Shown piece after piece: positions 1,241-15,019 of a DNA stretch of 18,870 nt (position 1 is its first letter; each line of letters opens with the position of its first letter). The notes below the pieces were generated by a model. It searched no databases. It was given only the letters and a program-made list of their open reading frames with translations, and had not been told where the DNA came from. The position numbers and the translations under genes were made by a program. The stretch is from a virus (taxonomy: Duplodnaviria > Heunggongvirae > Uroviricota > Caudoviricetes): IMG/VR virus record IMGVR_UViG_2917886563_000006, one strand, 5' to 3'.

Positions 1241-1902
1241 GCGCCTTCTCCCTGTACCTGAATCAATGTGAGGTTTCCGCAGAACACTGCTCCGGTATCG
1301 ATATACATTTGGTTGGCAAATTTAAGTGGTTTCACTGCTGGCGTATGACCAAAGATGAACGTGTCCGCGCCTTTGATTTCTTTCACGATCCCGTCTTGTG
1401 AGTTGCTGATTCGTTCGCGGTTCCAGATTACCAGCTGATGATCAACTGGCTTTCCAAACTCGTATTCATCACAAGGATAATCGGCGTGGCAGATGACATA
1501 TTTTTTACCTTTGCTCACCAGTTCGATGATTAACGGAAGTTCATCTGCTTTATGGGCAAGAGCTTTAGCCAGAATTTCTTTGTCGTAATCGAGATTAAAG
1601 AACCAGCCACCGCCATTAAGCAGCCAGTGATTGACGTTTCCACGCTCTGATAAGCCATCAATCATCATTTGCTCATGGTTTCCACGTACAGCTCGGAACC
1701 AGGGGAATGTGATTAATTCCAGACATTCGACGTTCTCTGTACCGCGATCAACCAAATCGCCAACCGAGATAAGCAGGTCTTTTTTGGTGTCGAATCCTAT
1801 CGTCTCCAGTTTTTTCATCAGGTTCGTGTAGCATCCGTGCAGATCGCCAACTACCCAAATATTTCGGTATTTGCTGCCATCAATTTTTTCGTAATAGCGC
1901 AT
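1237..1902 (-). CDS. ninI: Ser/Thr protein phosphatase NinI (lambda PPase)
   Basis: Start chosen at internal Met ([24 protein letters not shown]...), giving 221 aa; GDLHG, GDLVDRG and GNHE metallophosphatase motifs present. The ORF-track N-terminal extension is rejected. Stop overlaps the Q start. Confidence 0.9.
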
Positions 1903-8291: not shown

Positions 8292-8978
8292 ATGGATAAA
8301 TACGAACAAAGACGACTAAGGCTGATAGAGATAAGAGACCGATTCTGTAATGGAAAGGCCTCAGAGTTGGCTCGTCGAATAGAAAGGGAACCATCATACG
8401 TTTCCAGAATGCTGTATCCGGAAGGAAAAAGCGGAAAAAAACGCATTGCTGACGATATGATGGAACTAATTGAAAAATCTTTTAATCTCCCACGCGGATG
8501 GATGGACATGCTTGCAGATGGTAAAGCTGGAGCTACGGACCATCTTGAGTTTGCGGGTAACGTTCGTGCGGGTTTTGTTCCGGTAATTGGTGAAGCCGTT
8601 TTGGGAGTTGATGGCTCAGTGGATATGATTGAATTCAGATCCGGTTGGTTAAGCATCTACAGCGGCGATAAAGATGCTTACGGTCTGAAGGTTAAGGGTG
8701 ACAGCATGTGGCCAAGGATTCAGTCAGGAGAATATGTTGTTATTGAACCAAATACGCCAGTACATCCAGGTGATGAAGTCTTTGTAAGGACCAAAGACGG
8801 TCACAACATGATAAAGATCATGAACAAAACAAGAGACGGTGATTATCAGTTTAGTAGCATAAACAGTGATCACCGCCCAATCACTCTTCCTGTTGAAGAA
8901 GTTGATAAAATGCATTTTGTTTCAGCTATTGTGAAACACACCAGGTACGTAGACCAGGACGATCTGCCAAAAGTTTGA
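8292..8978 (+). CDS. cI: CI-type prophage repressor (N-terminal DNA-binding domain + C-terminal S24/LexA-like autopeptidase domain)
   Basis: 228-aa ORF; C-terminal GDSMWPRIQSGEYVVIEPN (Ser nucleophile motif) and downstream Lys typical of S24 peptidases; position and divergent arrangement with cro. Confidence 0.9.
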   Translation: MDKYEQRRLRLIEIRDRFCNGKASELARRIEREPSYVSRMLYPEGKSGKKRIADDMMELIEKSFNLPRGWMDMLADGKAGATDHLEFAGNVRAGFVPVIGEAVLGVDGSVDMIEFRSGWLSIYSGDKDAYGLKVKGDSMWPRIQSGEYVVIEPNTPVHPGDEVFVRTKDGHNMIKIMNKTRDGDYQFSSINSDHRPITLPVEEVDKMHFVSAIVKHTRYVDQDDLPKV

Positions 8979-8992
8979 GGATAAAGCAGCAA

Positions 8993-9289
8993 ATGTTTAT
9001 ACCCGGCATAGTAGTCGCTGTTGTAATCATCTGCTTCATATGGGCAAAGTTATCTCCTGTAAGCTCTAAGCATACAGCTGAACTCATGAGGAAGAAGCAT
9101 CTTATACATGAGGCAGAATCGATAATTAAAAAGTTCAAAGGCATGTCATACGACGACATGTCATCAGAGCAGATTGCTATGTATAAATGCGCCATTGAGC
9201 GCCTTGACTACTTAAACGGACTCAAACCCAAACACACCCCAGTAGAATCAAAATTGCCGCAATGGCCAAGCAATCCAAATAGCTTCTGA
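8993..9289 (+). CDS. Hypothetical small membrane protein (98 aa) in the rex slot downstream of cI
   Basis: ATG at 8993 (ORF track starts at a TTG at 8975 overlapping the cI stop); N-terminal hydrophobic helix FIPGIVVAVVIICFIWA then a charged domain; followed by a strong terminator. Confidence 0.6.
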   Translation: MFIPGIVVAVVIICFIWAKLSPVSSKHTAELMRKKHLIHEAESIIKKFKGMSYDDMSSEQIAMYKCAIERLDYLNGLKPKHTPVESKLPQWPSNPNSF

Positions 9290-9300
9290 CATCTCCTTTC

Positions 9301-9323
9301 AGCCCGCAAAGCGGGCTTTTTTA
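9301..9323 (+). terminator. Intrinsic terminator ending the immunity (cI) transcript
   Basis: AGCCCGC-AAA-GCGGGCT hairpin followed by TTTTTT. Confidence 0.75.
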
Positions 9324-9342
9324 TATCAATCCAAAAAATTAA

Positions 9343-9427
9343 TTACCTGAAAATTCAAGCAGGTAAACTCTCACATCAATTTTATTTACCTACAGGTATA
9401 GACAGAGGTTTTACCTGTAGGTATATT
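9343..9427. promoter_or_regulatory. Left operator/promoter region (oL/pL)
   Basis: Operator-type palindromes TTACCTACAGGTAT (9387-9400) and TTACCTGTAGGTAT (9411-9424), same family as oR; candidate pL -35 TAGACA (9399-9404) and -10 TATATT (9422-9427) with 17-bp spacer, upstream of nutL and N. Confidence 0.6.
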
Positions 9428-9467
9428 TTAAGCCATCAGCAGGACGCACTGACCACCATGAAGGTGA

Positions 9468-9498
9468 CGCTCTTAAAAATTAAGCCCTGAAGAAGGGC
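9468..9498 (+). promoter_or_regulatory. nutL (boxA CGCTCTTAA, boxB GCCCTGAAGAAGGGC)
   Basis: Matches lambda nutL boxA/boxB as recalled; located between pL and N. Confidence 0.8.
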
Positions 9499-9608
9499 AG
9501 CATTCAAAGCAGAAGGCTTTGGGTAGCGCGAAATGCAGCTGCAAGACAGCAACCGTGGAGATAAGCATCACGGCGCGTTACTCAAAGCTAACTGACAGGA
9601 GAATCCAG

Positions 9609-9935
9609 ATGGATGCACAAACACGCCGCCGCGAACGTCGCGCAGAGAAACAGGCTCAATGGAAAGCAGCAAATCCCCTGTTGGTTGGGGTAAGCGCAAA
9701 ACCAGTTAACCGCCCTATTCTCTCGCTGAATCGCAAACCGAAATCACGAGTAGAAAGCGCACTGAATCCGATAGACCTTACAGTGCTGGCTGAATACCAC
9801 GAACAGATTGAAAGCAACCTGCAACGTATTGAGCGCAAGAATCAGCGCACATGGTACAGCAAGCCACGCAGTGAAATGGGGGTGACTTGTGTTGGTCGCC
9901 AGAAAATGAAATTAGGCAGCAAACCACTTATTTGA
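9609..9935 (+). CDS. N: Antitermination protein N
   Basis: Start at the internal Met (MDAQTRRRERRAEKQAQWKAANPLLVGVSAKPVNRPIL...) with AGGAGA RBS; matches lambda N including the arginine-rich motif. The ORF-track upstream extension is rejected because it would span nutL. Confidence 0.95.
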   Translation: MDAQTRRRERRAEKQAQWKAANPLLVGVSAKPVNRPILSLNRKPKSRVESALNPIDLTVLAEYHEQIESNLQRIERKNQRTWYSKPRSEMGVTCVGRQKMKLGSKPLI

Positions 9936-9943
9936 GGTGAGAT

Positions 9944-10030
9944 ATGGAAGAAGAATTTGAAGAGTTCGAAGAGCATCCTCAGGATGTGATGGAACAATAC
10001 CAGGACTATCCGTATGACTACGACTATTGA
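9944..10030 (+). CDS. Possible small acidic peptide (28 aa), overlapping the ral start
   Basis: Hand-translated MEEEFEEFEEHPQDVMEQYQDYPYDYDY; GAGG 5 nt upstream; very acidic and aromatic. Could be non-coding. Confidence 0.25.
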   Translation: MEEEFEEFEEHPQDVMEQYQDYPYDYDY

Positions 10031-10214
10031 TAAGAATCAATGGTGTGGCCAATTCAAGCGATGCAATGGATGCAAGCTGCAATCGGAATGCATGGTTAAT
10101 CCTGAAGAAATGTTTCCTGTAATGGAGGATGGGAAATATGTCGATAAATGGGCAATACGAACTACGGCAATTATTGCCAGAGAACTTGGTAAACAGAACA
10201 ACAAGGCTGCCTGA
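10014..10214 (+). CDS. ral: Restriction alleviation protein Ral
   Basis: 66-aa ORF MTTTIDKNQWCGQFKRCNGCKLQSECMV... matching lambda Ral as recalled. Confidence 0.85.
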   Translation: MTTTIDKNQWCGQFKRCNGCKLQSECMVNPEEMFPVMEDGKYVDKWAIRTTAIIARELGKQNNKAA

Positions 10215-10253
10215 TGGTGGCCTTTATTTTTGGCATAAACAACAGAGGCTAAC

Positions 10254-10523
10254 ATGGAATTTAAAGGTACTAGGAAAAATTGGCGAGAAGCCAATTTTGC
10301 AGGCTTAATTTTATTTTCACACCCGGGAATGGCCCTATCCGGTAAAGAAACAGAAGAGGCCGTAGCAAATGGAAGATTAGCTATGGCTGTACCGGATTTA
10401 CTTGAAGCACTTCAGTTATTACTTAAGCAAGCCGAAAATAGAACAACGACAACATATCCAGAATGGTATGGAGCTGTTAATAAGGCTAGCGAAGCTATCA
10501 AAAAAGCCATAGGTGATGAGTAA
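10254..10523 (+). CDS. Hypothetical protein (89 aa)
   Basis: ORF with AGAGG RBS; predicted helical; stop overlaps the ATG of the next small ORF (TAATG). Confidence 0.55.
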   Translation: MEFKGTRKNWREANFAGLILFSHPGMALSGKETEEAVANGRLAMAVPDLLEALQLLLKQAENRTTTTYPEWYGAVNKASEAIKKAIGDE

Positions 10524-10681
10524 TGAATAAGAAATACATCGTTGAAGTTATAGAGCGAGAAACGAAAGAAGTAATTAAACATTTCGAATTTGATAATTAT
10601 AGAAAAGCTGACCGCGTAGAAGAGGGATTGTTGCGACAAAGTAATCTCGAAAAATTTGATGTTGTCATGCGATGCGAATAA
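10523..10681 (+). CDS. Hypothetical small protein (52 aa), translationally coupled to the upstream ORF
   Basis: Hand-translated MNKKYIVEVIERETKEVIKHFEFDNYRKADRVEEGLLRQSNLEKFDVVMRCE; below the ORF-track size cutoff. Confidence 0.45.
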   Translation: MNKKYIVEVIERETKEVIKHFEFDNYRKADRVEEGLLRQSNLEKFDVVMRCE

Positions 10682-10820
10682 GCACCTATAGCAGATTTGC
10701 GAGTCTGCTATGTGAGCAATGTCGCTCGTAACTAAACAGGAGCCGACTTGTTCTGATTATTGGAAATCTTCTTTGCCCTCCAATGTGAGGACGATTTTTT
10801 ATCTATGAGGATATGAAAAG

Positions 10821-11189
10821 ATGTCAAACATCAAAAAATACATCATTGATTACGACTGGAAAGCGTCAATAGAAATTGAAATCGACCATGACGTAATGAC
10901 AGAGGAAAAACTTCACCAGATTAATAATTTCTGGTCAGACTCTGAATACCGACTCAATAAACACGGCGCTGTATTAAATGCTGTATTAATCATGCTGACA
11001 CAACATGCTCTGCTTATAGCAATTTCGAAAGACTTAAATGCATATGGTGTTGTTTGTGAGTTCGACTGGGATGATGGAAATGGTCAGGAAGGATGGCCTC
11101 CAATGGATGGTAGTGAAGGAATAAGAATTACCGATATCGATACATCAGGAATATTTGATTCAGATGATATGACTATCAAGGCCGCCTGA
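10821..11189 (+). CDS. ea10: Ea10-like protein (122 aa)
   Basis: Size and position in the pL operon upstream of cIII match lambda ea10 as recalled; AT-rich, acidic C-terminus. Identity is by position and size, not verified by alignment. Confidence 0.6.
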   Translation: MSNIKKYIIDYDWKASIEIEIDHDVMTEEKLHQINNFWSDSEYRLNKHGAVLNAVLIMLTQHALLIAISKDLNAYGVVCEFDWDDGNGQEGWPPMDGSEGIRITDIDTSGIFDSDDMTIKAA

Positions 11190-11264
11190 GTGCGGCTTTA
11201 CCGCATACCAATAACGCTTCACTCGAGGCGTTTTCGTTATGCAATCAAATATAAGGAGTTACCC

Positions 11265-11399
11265 ATGATGCACTTTCAGCTCGCGGGTAGCGGCGTCATG
11301 TCCGCTTTCTACCCGCACGAATCTGAATTATCACGCCGAGTTAAACAATTAATCAGAGCAGCAAAGAAACAACTGGAGGCGTTATGCGCAATGAAATAG
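11265..11399 (+). CDS. cIII: CIII-like protein (44 aa; FtsH-inhibitor family)
   Basis: AAGGAG RBS 6 nt upstream of ATG; PHESELSRRVKQLIRAAKKQL resembles the conserved amphipathic core of lambda CIII (PSESLLERITRKLRDGWKRL). The ORF-track N-terminal extension is rejected. Confidence 0.65.
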   Translation: MMHFQLAGSGVMSAFYPHESELSRRVKQLIRAAKKQLEALCAMK

Positions 11400-11536
11400 C
11401 CATCAATCACCAGATGCTTCGTGCAGCACAAAACAAAGCAGTAATAGCCCGATTTATTGGTGATTCAAAAATGTGGCTTGAAGCAAATAAAGCGATGAAA
11501 TCAGCTATCAACCTTCCGTGGTATCGCAGGAAATGA
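11384..11536 (+). CDS. kil: Kil-like small protein (50 aa)
   Basis: Hand-translated MRNEIAINHQMLRAAQNKAVIARFIGDSKMWLEANKAMKSAINLPWYRRK; GGAGG RBS; overlaps the cIII 3' end as kil does in lambda; the FIGD.KM motif resembles what I recall of lambda Kil (tentative). Confidence 0.5.
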   Translation: MRNEIAINHQMLRAAQNKAVIARFIGDSKMWLEANKAMKSAINLPWYRRK

Positions 11537-11691
11537 GTTTTACAGATAACTGGTCAGACGAAGAATTCATTCGTCAGATGAAAGAATTAATCGGTAACGA
11601 AGGAGATATTCATGTCACTTGCAACCACAGTGAAGGAGAGCAAGTTACAGAGGCGCATGTACACGCAGAAAGCTCTCTGGTATCGCCATAA
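11533..11691 (+). CDS. Hypothetical small protein (52 aa), ATGA-coupled to the kil-like gene
   Basis: Hand-translated MSFTDNWSDEEFIRQMKELIGNEGDIHVTCNHSEGEQVTEAHVHAESSLVSP. Confidence 0.4.
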   Translation: MSFTDNWSDEEFIRQMKELIGNEGDIHVTCNHSEGEQVTEAHVHAESSLVSP

Positions 11692-11790
11692 TGGTGACCG
11701 CGAAGGAATGCGGGTATGCCTTAATTTGTCCAGAGTCGAAGTATTAAACCAGCGTTATTTCCTTGGGCCATGTCCATTCTGAGGTGAATT

Positions 11791-12498
11791 ATGGATTTGA
11801 ATAAATTCGATGAGCCATTCAGCCCTGAAGATATCGAATGGCGAATACAGCAAAGCGGTAAAACACGCGATGGCAAAGTGTGGGCTATGGTGCTGGCTTA
11901 TGTCACGAACCGGGCAATCATGAAACGCCTTGACGATGTTTGTGGCAAAGCGGGATGGCGCAATGAATACCGCGATATTCCCAACAACGGCGGCGTTGAA
12001 TGCGGCATATCAATCAAGATTGATTCCGAATGGGTAACCAAATGGGATGCTGCTGAAAACACGCAGGTAGAAGCCGTCAAAGGTGGTCGTTCCGGTGCAA
12101 TGAAGCGTGCTGCCGTTCAGTGGGGAATCGGTCGGTATCTGTATAACCTTGAGGAAGGTTTCGCACAAACATCTCTCGATAAAAAGCAGGGATGGCACAG
12201 GGCAAAACTGAAGGATGGAACAGGATTTTACTGGTCTCCTCCATCGCTGCCGGGATGGGCAATGCCAGCATCTGGCAATCAACCATCACCAGAAAATACC
12301 AACCAGAAATCTCCATCGGTTGACTGCGAACAAATCCTGAAAGACTTCAGCGATTATGCATCGACAGAAACTGACAAGAAAAAACTCATAGAACGTTATC
12401 AGCATGACTGGCAATTAATGGCTGGCAATGAGGATGCGCAGGCTAAATGCGTTCAGGTAATGAACATCAGAGTTAATGAACTAAAACAGGCGGCATAA
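11791..12498 (+). CDS. Single-strand annealing recombinase, Rad52/Sak-like (tentative family)
   Basis: 235-aa ORF with GAGGTGA RBS; GGRSGAMKRAAVQWGIGRYLY resembles the conserved core I recall for phage Rad52-like annealing proteins; lies directly upstream of ssb in the position of lambda bet/exo. Confidence 0.7.
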   Translation: MDLNKFDEPFSPEDIEWRIQQSGKTRDGKVWAMVLAYVTNRAIMKRLDDVCGKAGWRNEYRDIPNNGGVECGISIKIDSEWVTKWDAAENTQVEAVKGGRSGAMKRAAVQWGIGRYLYNLEEGFAQTSLDKKQGWHRAKLKDGTGFYWSPPSLPGWAMPASGNQPSPENTNQKSPSVDCEQILKDFSDYASTETDKKKLIERYQHDWQLMAGNEDAQAKCVQVMNIRVNELKQAA

Positions 12499-13005
12499 AT
12501 GGCAAGCAGAGGAGTAAATAAGGTGATTATCCTTGGTCGGGTAGGACAAGACCCGGAAGTTCGATACTCACCATCAGGAACAGCGTTCGCTAACCTGACA
12601 ATAGCCACGTCAGAACAATGGCGAGATAAAAATACTGGCGAGCAAAAGGAATTGACTGAATGGCATCGTGTTGCTGCATCCGGGAAACTGGCTGAGGTCG
12701 TGGGGCAGTATGTGAAAAAAGGTGATCAGATTTATTTCGAGGGAATGCTGAGAACCAGAAAGTGGAAAGACCAGTCAGGGCAAGACCGTTACACAACCGA
12801 GGTTCATGTCGGAATTAATGGCGTGATGCAAATGCTTGGCGGCATTGGCGACAGCAAACAACAAGCAGCCAGCAGGCAATCACAGAAGCCACAGCAGCAA
12901 TCATCCCCAGCACAACACAACGAACCTCCGATGGATTTTGACGACGATATACCCTTTGCACCAGTAACTCTCCCCTTCCCTCGTCACGCTATTCACGCAA
13001 TTTAA
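12499..13005 (+). CDS. ssb: Single-stranded DNA-binding protein SSB (with 15-aa extension beyond the DDDIPF tip)
   Basis: OB-fold N-terminus ([34 protein letters not shown]...), Gln/Pro-rich linker and [10 protein letters not shown] motif; the ORF continues [15 protein letters not shown] before the stop. Confidence 0.9.
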
Positions 13006-13018
13006 TCAGGAGAAAACC

Positions 13019-13312
13019 ATGCCAGCGCCTCTGTATGGTGCGGACGACGCGCGCCGCTGTTCCGGCAATTCCGTATTGGAGGTGCTGGATAAATTCAGAA
13101 AAAACTACGACCTGATAATGTCGCTACCGCAGGAAACGAAAGAGGAAAAGGAATTTCGCCATTGTATATGGCTTGCAGAGAAAGAAGAACGCGAGCGAAT
13201 TTACCAGACATCAATCCGACCATTCCGCAAAGCCACATATACCCACTTCCCTGAAATTGACCCGCGCCTGCGTAATTACCGCTCACGCTATGGCGCTATC
13301 AGTAATGACTGA
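13019..13312 (+). CDS. Hypothetical protein (97 aa)
   Basis: AGGAGA RBS 5 nt upstream of ATG; protein-like composition. Confidence 0.6.
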
Positions 13313-14317: not shown

Positions 14318-15019
14318 ATGCCCAAAATTACCGGTGTTCTAGTGAGCCACCATGTGTTCGATATAAAAAAAGACATGGCTAATGGTTCATTCCCGAAAAC
14401 ATTATTTCCAGGCGCGACATTTCAGATGGTGGTTGACAATGATGTTGTCAATAATAATACGTTGGACTGGAGTGTTGTCACCAATGCGGGAGACAATTCG
14501 CTGACTGTAAATCAGGACGGCGTGGTGTCATTTTCAAATGATATTGATGAAAGTTGCATTGGTAAAACATTTGTTATTTTTGCGAAGGATAAAGCCACAG
14601 GGAAAAATGTGTCATCTTATTTAATTAAACCTTATCGCTTCTTTAAACCTCGTACCGCAACGTCGGACAGATTTTACGATGCATTGTTTTGGATTGAGGA
14701 TAAAAAAGGGACTGTCCCGGCACGACGCGATATCAATAATGTCCCTTTCGATGAACTGACGGGAGAAATGTTTCATGATGTAAAACGTGAAGTGAATTCC
14801 GGGCTTTTTCAGGAATGGGGATTTTTACTGTTTAGTGGGTGGACTAATCCTGTACGTGGTGATATTGGTAGTCTCGAATCAGAAATTTTCACTTTAGAAA
14901 ATGACAGTATATTTATATCGACAGTCAACTCCCTCCCATACTCCAGAGATCTCCATGATGATATGGACTCCCAGTCTGCACAGGCTGTAGCGTTTTACGG
15001 GGAATCTGTTGTTTCCTGA
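14318..15019 (+). CDS. Hypothetical protein (233 aa), cargo of the inverted-repeat-bounded AT-rich cassette
   Basis: Strong AAGGAG RBS 6 nt upstream of ATG; long AT-rich leader (14160-14317, sampled windows about 23-32% GC) and coding region about 40% GC versus a visibly higher-GC phage backbone; no signal peptide or transmembrane segment; no recognisable catalytic motif. Confidence 0.75.
   Translation: MPKITGVLVSHHVFDIKKDMANGSFPKTLFPGATFQMVVDNDVVNNNTLDWSVVTNAGDNSLTVNQDGVVSFSNDIDESCIGKTFVIFAKDKATGKNVSSYLIKPYRFFKPRTATSDRFYDALFWIEDKKGTVPARRDINNVPFDELTGEMFHDVKREVNSGLFQEWGFLLFSGWTNPVRGDIGSLESEIFTLENDSIFISTVNSLPYSRDLHDDMDSQSAQAVAFYGESVVS

Follow-up and report, generated by a model that had tools for sequence, protein, structure and literature searches.

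Gene content between ral and ea10

The window, which is the whole stretch of 18,870 nucleotides that was analysed, carries cI, N, orf28, ral, ORF89, ORF52, ea10, cIII, kil, a Rad52-like gene, SSB, Abc2 and further genes up to int. The prophage is lambdoid, and this order from cI to int confirms the pL operon, here on the plus strand, that had been proposed in an earlier annotation made from the letters alone (hereafter the sequence-only reading). The cI-type repressor gene (8292-8978, Peptidase_S24) is followed by N (9519-9935), orf28 (9944-10030) and ral (10014-10214; Pfam Ral, E = 6e-47), and an ea10-like gene encoding a DUF2528 protein (E = 9e-46) lies at 10821-11189. Between ral and the ea10-like gene there are two small plus-strand genes with ATG starts, ORF89 (10254..10523), which encodes an 89-aa protein of the Y8K6/XkdD family, and ORF52 (10523..10681), which encodes a 52-aa mini-protein. 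The TAA stop codon of ORF89 (10521-10523) and the ATG of ORF52 (10523-10525) have one A in common, at position 10523, and the coordinates, the flanking genes and the TAATG overlap given previously were all confirmed. The AT-rich character attributed to this stretch holds only mildly, with a GC content of 0.38-0.41 at the ORF89/ORF52 region versus 0.44-0.52 farther off, and ea10 is as AT-rich as the pair.

ORF89 and ORF52 are accessory genes of an optional insert of 467 bp in the delayed-early pL operon. The insert (10247..10713, plus strand) was delimited by alignment with VT2-Sakai and with the ral-ea10 gap of lambda, and comprises both genes and a hairpin, HP1. Its left flank is the 3' end of ral, where a terminator-like hairpin with a 9-bp stem and a T-rich tail lies over the ral stop codon (10203..10224, plus strand) and is followed by TATTTTTGG; hairpin and TATTTTTGG, together with GGCATAAACAACAGA, form a conserved left junction that is also found in lambda, VT2-Sakai, APC_JM3.2 and mEp213. 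The right flank starts at GAGCAATGTCGC. Lambda and VT2-Sakai possess both flanks with only about 43 bp between them, which include a hairpin of their own. Among 5426 complete E. coli genomes the flanks were found in 2231, ORF52 with its hairpin in 90, and the full 89-aa variant of the Y8K6 gene in seven. The order of the locus is thus ral, the optional insert (Y8K6 gene, swappable mini-gene and hairpin), PreS/tL2a and ea10.

A simple consensus scan, which a weak promoter can escape, found no sigma-70-like promoter on the plus strand between 9427 and 11300. Since neither gene has a promoter-like site to itself and ral is followed by a terminator-like hairpin, expression of ORF89 and ORF52 is expected only upon induction or infection, when both proteins would be made from the N-antiterminated pL transcript and from no other.

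Families, conservation and predicted folds of the two proteins

Contrary to the sequence-only reading, in which neither protein matched a recognisable family, both belong to catalogued ones. ORF89 matches phrog_1273 (E = 2.1e-14), as does orf78 of phage P22 (E = 1.2e-15), and was assigned to the Pfam family PF27050, named Phage_P22_Y8K6, through its homologues. PF27050 is precomputed on 66 out of 66 of these, one of which is 97% identical to ORF89. The empty Pfam scan of ORF89 itself is explained by the model set that was scanned, a Pfam copy without PF27050. In RefSeq, the homologue encoded at a locus with 98.8% DNA identity bears the name 'XkdD/Y8K6 family phage-associated protein'. The position agrees with that of P22 orf78 too, ORF89 being located in the early-left operon between the N/ral and the gene 17/ea10/cIII genes.

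The Y8K6 family is characterised by a core, L-x-x-A-x-P-D-L-L-E-A-L, and a C-terminal tail, A-I-x-K-A-x-G-x-E. Both are present in ORF89, the core as the conserved helix LAMAVPDLLEAL (family form LIAAAPDLLEAL) and the tail as AIKKAIGDE (family form AISKALGEE). Residues L42, A45, P47 and L49 are invariant among 39 sequences, and ORF89 has V in place of the nearly invariant A46. In the AF2 model (pLDDT 74), helices 34-61 and 68-86 form a confident C-terminal helical hairpin, and the variable N-terminus (1-33) is modelled with low confidence; this short N-terminal part is shared with Enterobacter prophages.

ORF52 matches phrog_6949 over its full length (E = 3.2e-40, residues 1-52 on profile positions 1-52 of 52), and two distant members of its family (P0083 and P0094) match the same profile. 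Identical proteins, 100% over the 52 residues, are encoded by mEp043 (gp045), mEp213 (gp048) and APC_JM3.2 (gp49). Most phrog_6949 copies start with MM, giving 53 aa and an ATGA overlap, and the window copy has a single M and the TAATG overlap. A profile search retrieved 229 small relatives of 49-100 aa from phage-like contigs, down to 30-40% identity, and none of the 229 carries a Pfam family. A FlaG/YvyC identity, suggested by the JGI label of a few relatives, was dropped, the similarity being confined to a short beta-hairpin.

The sequence-only reading had named a 52-aa frame not kept intact in homologous regions as what would refute it. This refutation fails: of 80 IMG/VR loci encoding ORF52, its motif was found in 78, and 76 of these retain the full frame. 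Its variable sites fall at codon positions 1, 2 and 3 in the numbers 17, 11 and 42. Compared with the most distant relatives at the DNA level, pS is nearly saturated (0.8-0.9) and pN is 0.05-0.13, and pN/pS amounts to 0.06-0.17; these substitution patterns point to strong purifying selection on ORF52. The AF2 model shows a compact beta-beta-alpha-beta fold with a pLDDT of 93. A chance ORF in AT-rich DNA could be suspected from a length of only 52 codons, and in some genomes a single PGAP CDS ('hypothetical protein') lies under the 606-nt match. However, the full-length family match, the 229 relatives, the low pN/pS at saturated synonymous sites and the confident fold already refute this explanation, to which we attach practically no probability. 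Both ORF89 and ORF52 are genuine genes, as is seen from the family matches, the selection on ORF52, the AF2 models and the annotated CDSs in RefSeq/GenBank, where they already figure as hypothetical proteins of catalogued families.

Searches for function returned little for either protein. Scans of both against Pfam, NCBIfam and PADLOC gave FlaG (E = 0.02), ScpA (E = 0.03) and ACP (E = 0.04) as the sole hits, all far below the cut-offs, and no toxin, antitoxin or defence family matched in these three collections at E <= 1. Profile sequence searches of the PDB gave nothing with both proteins. Fold searches found generic helical hairpins and alpha+beta halves only; with ORF89, Foldseek against the PDB retrieved nothing but such hairpins (best E = 0.24), and against BFVD only uncharacterised small phage proteins were retrieved. 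Literature searches on Y8K6/XkdD, orf78 and the PHROG families yielded nothing about either protein.

The proposal of a stoichiometric pair, toxin-antitoxin-like or inhibitory, was not borne out by these searches, by the absence of a promoter-like site of its own in the consensus scan or by the independent assortment of the two genes described below. A toxin-antitoxin-like or abortive-infection module of the prophage would share with type II toxin-antitoxin operons two small ORFs that are adjacent or overlapping, and nothing further argues for it. Unlike such operons, ORF89 and ORF52 have neither a toxin or antitoxin fold or domain nor, in their models, a DNA-binding domain for autoregulation. 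Moreover, they have no promoter-like site of their own in the consensus scan, they lie in a lytic operon that the lysogen keeps repressed, and their partners are freely exchanged, as is not expected of an obligate unit. The same slot in P22 also holds orf78 with a DUF551 gene. We consider a toxin-antitoxin role extremely improbable, and this reading of the pair can be dropped.

Hairpin HP1 and the PreS segment

The stem-loop noted previously at 10688-10711 is real and extends over 10687..10712 on the plus strand. This hairpin, HP1, has 11 base pairs in its stem and the loop UGCG, and folding of the 150-nt region gives z = -2.6. The weak terminator reported after it also exists, as a tL2a-type intrinsic terminator (10776..10800, plus strand) that reads CCTC-CAATGT-GAGG followed by ACGA and TTTTTT, and that the consensus scan left unlisted because of its weakness. 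However, these elements are not the 3' end of the gene pair itself: the terminator is the tL2a of a small RNA, PreS, and marks its 3' end, and HP1 lies just 5' of that RNA.

In lambda, the RNA formerly called LPR1 has been renamed PreS; this sRNA depends on Hfq, measures about 88 nt (68 nt when processed), is encoded between ral and ea10 and has its 3' end at the terminator tL2a (10.1101/2024.10.31.621285). It is produced in the lytic cycle, when it activates the translation of dnaN and acts as a repressor of alaS, properties that are reported for lambda only (10.1101/2024.10.31.621285). Positions 10714-10800 of the window agree with the segment between ral and ea10 of lambda in 85 of 87 nucleotides and end in the same hairpin and U-run, and this agreement is within the at least 92% similarity to lambda LPR1 by which PreS is recognised (10.1101/2024.10.31.621285). 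On the strength of this match we regard positions 10713..10800 (plus strand) as a homologue of the published sRNA, made up of HP2, HP3, a single-stranded UUCUGAUUAUUGG and tL2a, with a 5' end placed from the 88-nt size. Both differences from lambda fall in the terminator hairpin, where one of them, a G>A change in the stem, removes the outer pair; folding of the 88-nt stretch gives z = -3.0. Unlike PreS of lambda, the window copy is preceded by the ORF89-ORF52 insert and by a different HP1. A permissive Rfam search of positions 9000-12000, PreS segment included, matched no family.

The same series of elements follows the cargo gene in related phages: HP1 with 11-12 bp, HP2, HP3, a single-stranded UUCUGAUUA and a terminator just 5' of the next gene. 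Independent folds of lambda, P22, ST104, SI8, MII_001 and the loci L071-L084 and L095-L099 all have HP1 in this position, with stems that differ in sequence. The stem occurs as TATAGCAGATT in the window and as AATGACCATTT, GTGTATTCATTC, GATAGCTAATTC and GATAGCCGATTC elsewhere, with the pairing kept, and its G·U pairs are formed on the plus strand only. A covariance model of HP1 and HP2 (R1) scored 60-79 bits on the plus strand of Enterobacter/Cronobacter-type loci and 33 bits on the window and P22, and in two loci (L081 and L083) it detected a further copy behind the next cargo gene; its alignment mixes in weaker minus-strand matches of the palindromic HP1. When the hairpin region was aligned with plain MAFFT, RNAalifold retrieved HP2 only, because differences in loop length shift HP1 and HP3 out of register, and the conservation of HP1 is therefore based on the independent folds and the covariance model. 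The sequence CGCTCGTAAC in HP2 could be taken for a boxA-like element; this was rejected because its bases co-vary with those they pair with and other phages have a different sequence here.

HP1 adjoins the inferred 5' end of PreS on its 5' side and the stop codon of ORF52 lies 5 nt before HP1. With a structurally conserved HP1 after every type of cargo gene, this proximity could suggest that the insert acts mainly in cis, the translation of ORF89 and ORF52 tuning the processing, stability or termination of PreS and the proteins themselves being of minor importance. However, the strong purifying selection on ORF52 at the amino-acid level and the confident protein folds argue against such a role, and lambda makes PreS with no gene at this position. 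A mainly cis-acting insert thus seems very unlikely.

Stop/start junction, partner exchange and possible roles

Within the last codons of ORF89, direct reading of the sequence finds a Shine-Dalgarno-like AGGTGA for ORF52 (10511..10516, plus strand), and in other Y8K6 variants the equivalent tail reads GGGGAGGAG TGATG. The stop/start overlap described in the sequence-only reading is indeed a conserved trait, kept in about 60 independent contigs as TAATG or TGATG, or as ATGA where the second gene starts with MM. Among 67 diverse loci, the next ORF overlaps the Y8K6 gene by 4 or 1 nt in 45. Moreover, the last 30 nt or so of Y8K6 genes are conserved at the nucleotide level, third codon positions included, with the consensus GC-N-GC-N-ATCAGCAAGGCTCTGGGGGAGGAGTGATG, which is constant across phages of Salmonella, Enterobacter and E. 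coli irrespective of the downstream gene. This tail encodes ...AISKALGEE and a stop codon, and contains a GGAGG-type Shine-Dalgarno sequence a few bases 5' of the next ATG.

Coupled expression had been deduced from the overlap. The overlap is conserved, as said, but the RNA of the ORF89/ORF52 junction has no significant structure (folding, z = +0.35), so that the start of ORF52 is accessible without upstream translation. The same folding result led us to discard an occluded start as the basis of strict translational coupling. Coupling between the two genes is possible and is not enforced; ORF52 would be translated by ribosomes that have just terminated on ORF89 or by others that initiate anew at AGGTGA.

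The two genes also assort independently of each other. A near-invariant ORF52 stands behind 10 clusters of Y8K6 proteins (clustering at 80% identity) that are 32-78% identical to each other and differ in their N-terminal and central segments. Conversely, the small genes that follow Y8K6 genes, again overlapping them by 1 or 4 nt, are of at least eight unrelated kinds: phrog_6949 in this window, DUF551/phrog_924 in P22 and Enterobacter phage MII_001, a 70-aa phrog_2201 gene that is common in E. coli prophages, a 42-aa phrog_11224 gene in ST104 and SI8, a 50-aa phrog_23691 gene, a 62-aa gene starting MKVKITAS, a 72-aa gene starting MKNESAF and an 81-aa gene starting MEGCDNND, the last with a gap of 0 nt. 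Almost identical ST104-type Y8K6 genes are paired either with the 42-aa gene or with ORF52. In loci L079-L082, homologues of ORF52 with a Shine-Dalgarno sequence of their own lie 34 nt behind a DUF551 gene, an 81-aa gene or a small Zn-ribbon-like gene; distant relatives of ORF52 are found among rows of other small phage genes, none of them next to a PF27050 gene, and in several loci ORF52 is kept behind a truncated Y8K6 frame. ORF89 and ORF52 are thus not an obligate pair. Co-occurrence elsewhere, which had been put forward as a check on the pair, is seen in 62 of 68 E. coli-type loci, where a Y8K6 gene precedes ORF52, many of these loci being close relatives and not independent; both genes, however, also occur with other neighbours. 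From the figure of 62/68 it is conceivable that there is a loose functional link, and ORF89 and ORF52 may be connected through the conserved Y8K6 core.

These data bear directly on the possibility of an obligate stoichiometric complex, in which Y8K6 would be, for example, an adaptor or chaperone and the overlap would match the amounts of the two proteins. The conservation of the overlap in about 60 loci and the frequent co-occurrence would be expected of such a complex, and the core helix and tail, which are invariant across variants, could in principle offer a common docking surface. However, the same tail is joined to many unrelated small genes, identical ORF52 proteins accompany widely divergent Y8K6 variants, and ORF52 persists behind genes of other families and behind truncated Y8K6 frames, while distant phages carry it in the complete absence of Y8K6; the unstructured junction, moreover, leaves its start independent of upstream translation. 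An obligate complex therefore appears unlikely. Partner swapping shows the overlap to be a trait of the Y8K6 tail and of tight gene packing in phages, and no sign of a two-protein machine.

The arrangement has a close counterpart in P22, where orf78 and orf87 occupy the same position, after ral and before the gene 17/ea10 slot. As in the window, the first gene belongs to phrog_1273/PF27050, the second starts on the last base of the stop codon of the first, and the HP1-HP2-HP3-terminator RNA region lies downstream. Unlike ORF52, P22 orf87 encodes an unrelated DUF551 protein of 67 aa, and the N-terminal half of orf78 differs from that of ORF89. Given the order ral, orf78, orf87 and gene 17 in P22, the pair of the window is the local version of an arrangement long annotated in a model phage. 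Little changes, then, in what is known of the region, as the genes fall in catalogued families, the P22 layout is decades old and the downstream RNA is a published sRNA.

As a whole explanation, we think it probable that ORF89 and ORF52 are two separate, genuine accessory genes whose overlap comes from the Y8K6 tail and each of which acts alone on a host factor. At the same locus, related phages carry genes for Ral, a protein of the PF25705 Gad1 family (L096), gene 17 and a pentapeptide-repeat protein (ST104) and an HNH protein (SI8), and these neighbours suggest a small host-factor-binding role for each protein. Judging from this neighbourhood, each would most likely be a small binder that neutralises or modulates a host factor, in counter-defence or host takeover, with no need of the other.

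A more specific proposal goes further, in that the Y8K6 tail and HP1 would delimit a cargo slot of the pL operon into and out of which lambdoid and P22-like phages swap tiny genes by homologous recombination, the cargo consisting of single-protein inhibitors of host defences or functions and Y8K6 serving as an aca-like marker. In its full form we regard this as rather unlikely. Judging from mosaic patterns, the Y8K6 tail and the hairpin/PreS segment probably act as joints for homologous recombination through which the small downstream gene is exchanged. In acr-aca operons a variable small anti-defence gene stands beside a conserved marker gene. The likeness is one of layout only, a conserved Y8K6 gene standing beside highly variable tiny genes in a locus rich in counter-defence; unlike in acr-aca operons, the conserved gene is the first of the two and lacks a helix-turn-helix. 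We know of no member of the Y8K6/cargo set with anti-defence activity.

The lead worth keeping from this locus is that the Y8K6 tail is a fixed junction for many different tiny genes in a region rich in counter-defence. If these mini-genes are inhibitors of host factors, the Y8K6 junction would be a cheap route to more of them. As a separate observation, an unrelated Zn-ribbon-like gene ends in the same tail, ...AKAIGEEE, which fits the Y8K6 tail as a portable junction.

Boundaries of the insert and its reading frames

The left junction of the insert that carries ORF89 and ORF52 between ral and PreS is marked by a terminator-like hairpin overlapping the ral stop codon (window 10203-10224; 9-bp stem, then TATTTTTGG), which is kept in lambda, VT2-Sakai, APC_JM3.2 and mEp213, also where the upstream gene is not ral. 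A small Zn-ribbon-like gene (CDVC...CHEC) that is unrelated to Y8K6, the family of ORF89, has the same ...AKAIGEEE tail at its end in two related loci (L080 1221-1382 and L081 2291-2452), which suggests that non-homologous genes share this sequence as a portable junction; the shorter copy in L082 (2817-2954) does not carry it.

On the minus strand, two ORFs with TTG starts overlap ral/ORF89 (85 aa, 10037-10294) and ORF89/ORF52 (75 aa, 10412-10639); both would encode hydrophobic, low-complexity polypeptides. They are most likely spurious, since the pattern of codon-position variation favours the plus strand frames.

Hairpin HP1 and the PreS homologue

Directly 5' of PreS lies the hairpin HP1 (window 10687-10712). 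Its counterparts are found in lambda (L089 615-642, minus strand), in P22 (L101, about 1343-1368, minus strand) and in the related loci L071-L084, L085-L087 and L095-L099. Many phages have a stem of 11-12 bp at this position but with a different sequence, and the changes are apparently compensatory, with G·U pairs limited to the plus strand. A second copy of HP1 together with the next hairpin, HP2, follows a 41-aa MEISKEQ gene, the next small cargo gene 3' of ORF52, in L081 (3341-3391) and L083 (3338-3387). Thus, successive mini-genes can each be punctuated by the HP1-HP2 module. In L079 the terminator directly adjoins HP1-HP2, without the third hairpin, HP3.

Lambda PreS/LPR1 is an Hfq-dependent sRNA, for which the published account gives a conservation of at least 92% identity (10.1101/2024.10.31.621285). 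Its homologue in the window (10713-10800, plus strand, 3' end at the terminator tL2a) shares 85 of 87 positions with lambda. The two substitutions fall within the terminator hairpin, and one makes the stem shorter. Rfam (release 15) gave no match over this segment. More divergent PreS-like regions (P22, ST104 and an Enterobacter phage) likewise retain HP2 and HP3 as well as the UUCUG(A/G)UUA stretch, which is single-stranded, so that conservation reaches further than the identity of at least 92% given in the published account (10.1101/2024.10.31.621285).

Mosaic make-up of the pL operon

The slot after Y8K6 and its cargo gene is filled by ea10 in the window, as in lambda, whereas related prophages have a coiled-coil protein of ~322 aa, assigned to PF25705 (Gad1, anti-Gabija family) in L096 (3133-4107) and annotated only as "coiled-coil domain-containing protein" in L001 (3600-4568). 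Upstream, orf28 begins 8 bp after N (9935-9944), whereas in lambda this interval holds a ~680-bp segment, with sieB on the opposite strand, that is missing here. The recombination module (11791-13312) shows that the pL operon is mosaic, because it consists of a Rad52/22-family protein, SSB and the P22-type anti-RecBCD protein Abc2 instead of lambda exo/bet/gam. A 233-aa ORF (14318-15019) has a weak match to the Ig-like domain Invasin_D4 (E 1.6e-8), uncommon for the early-left part of a lambdoid genome.
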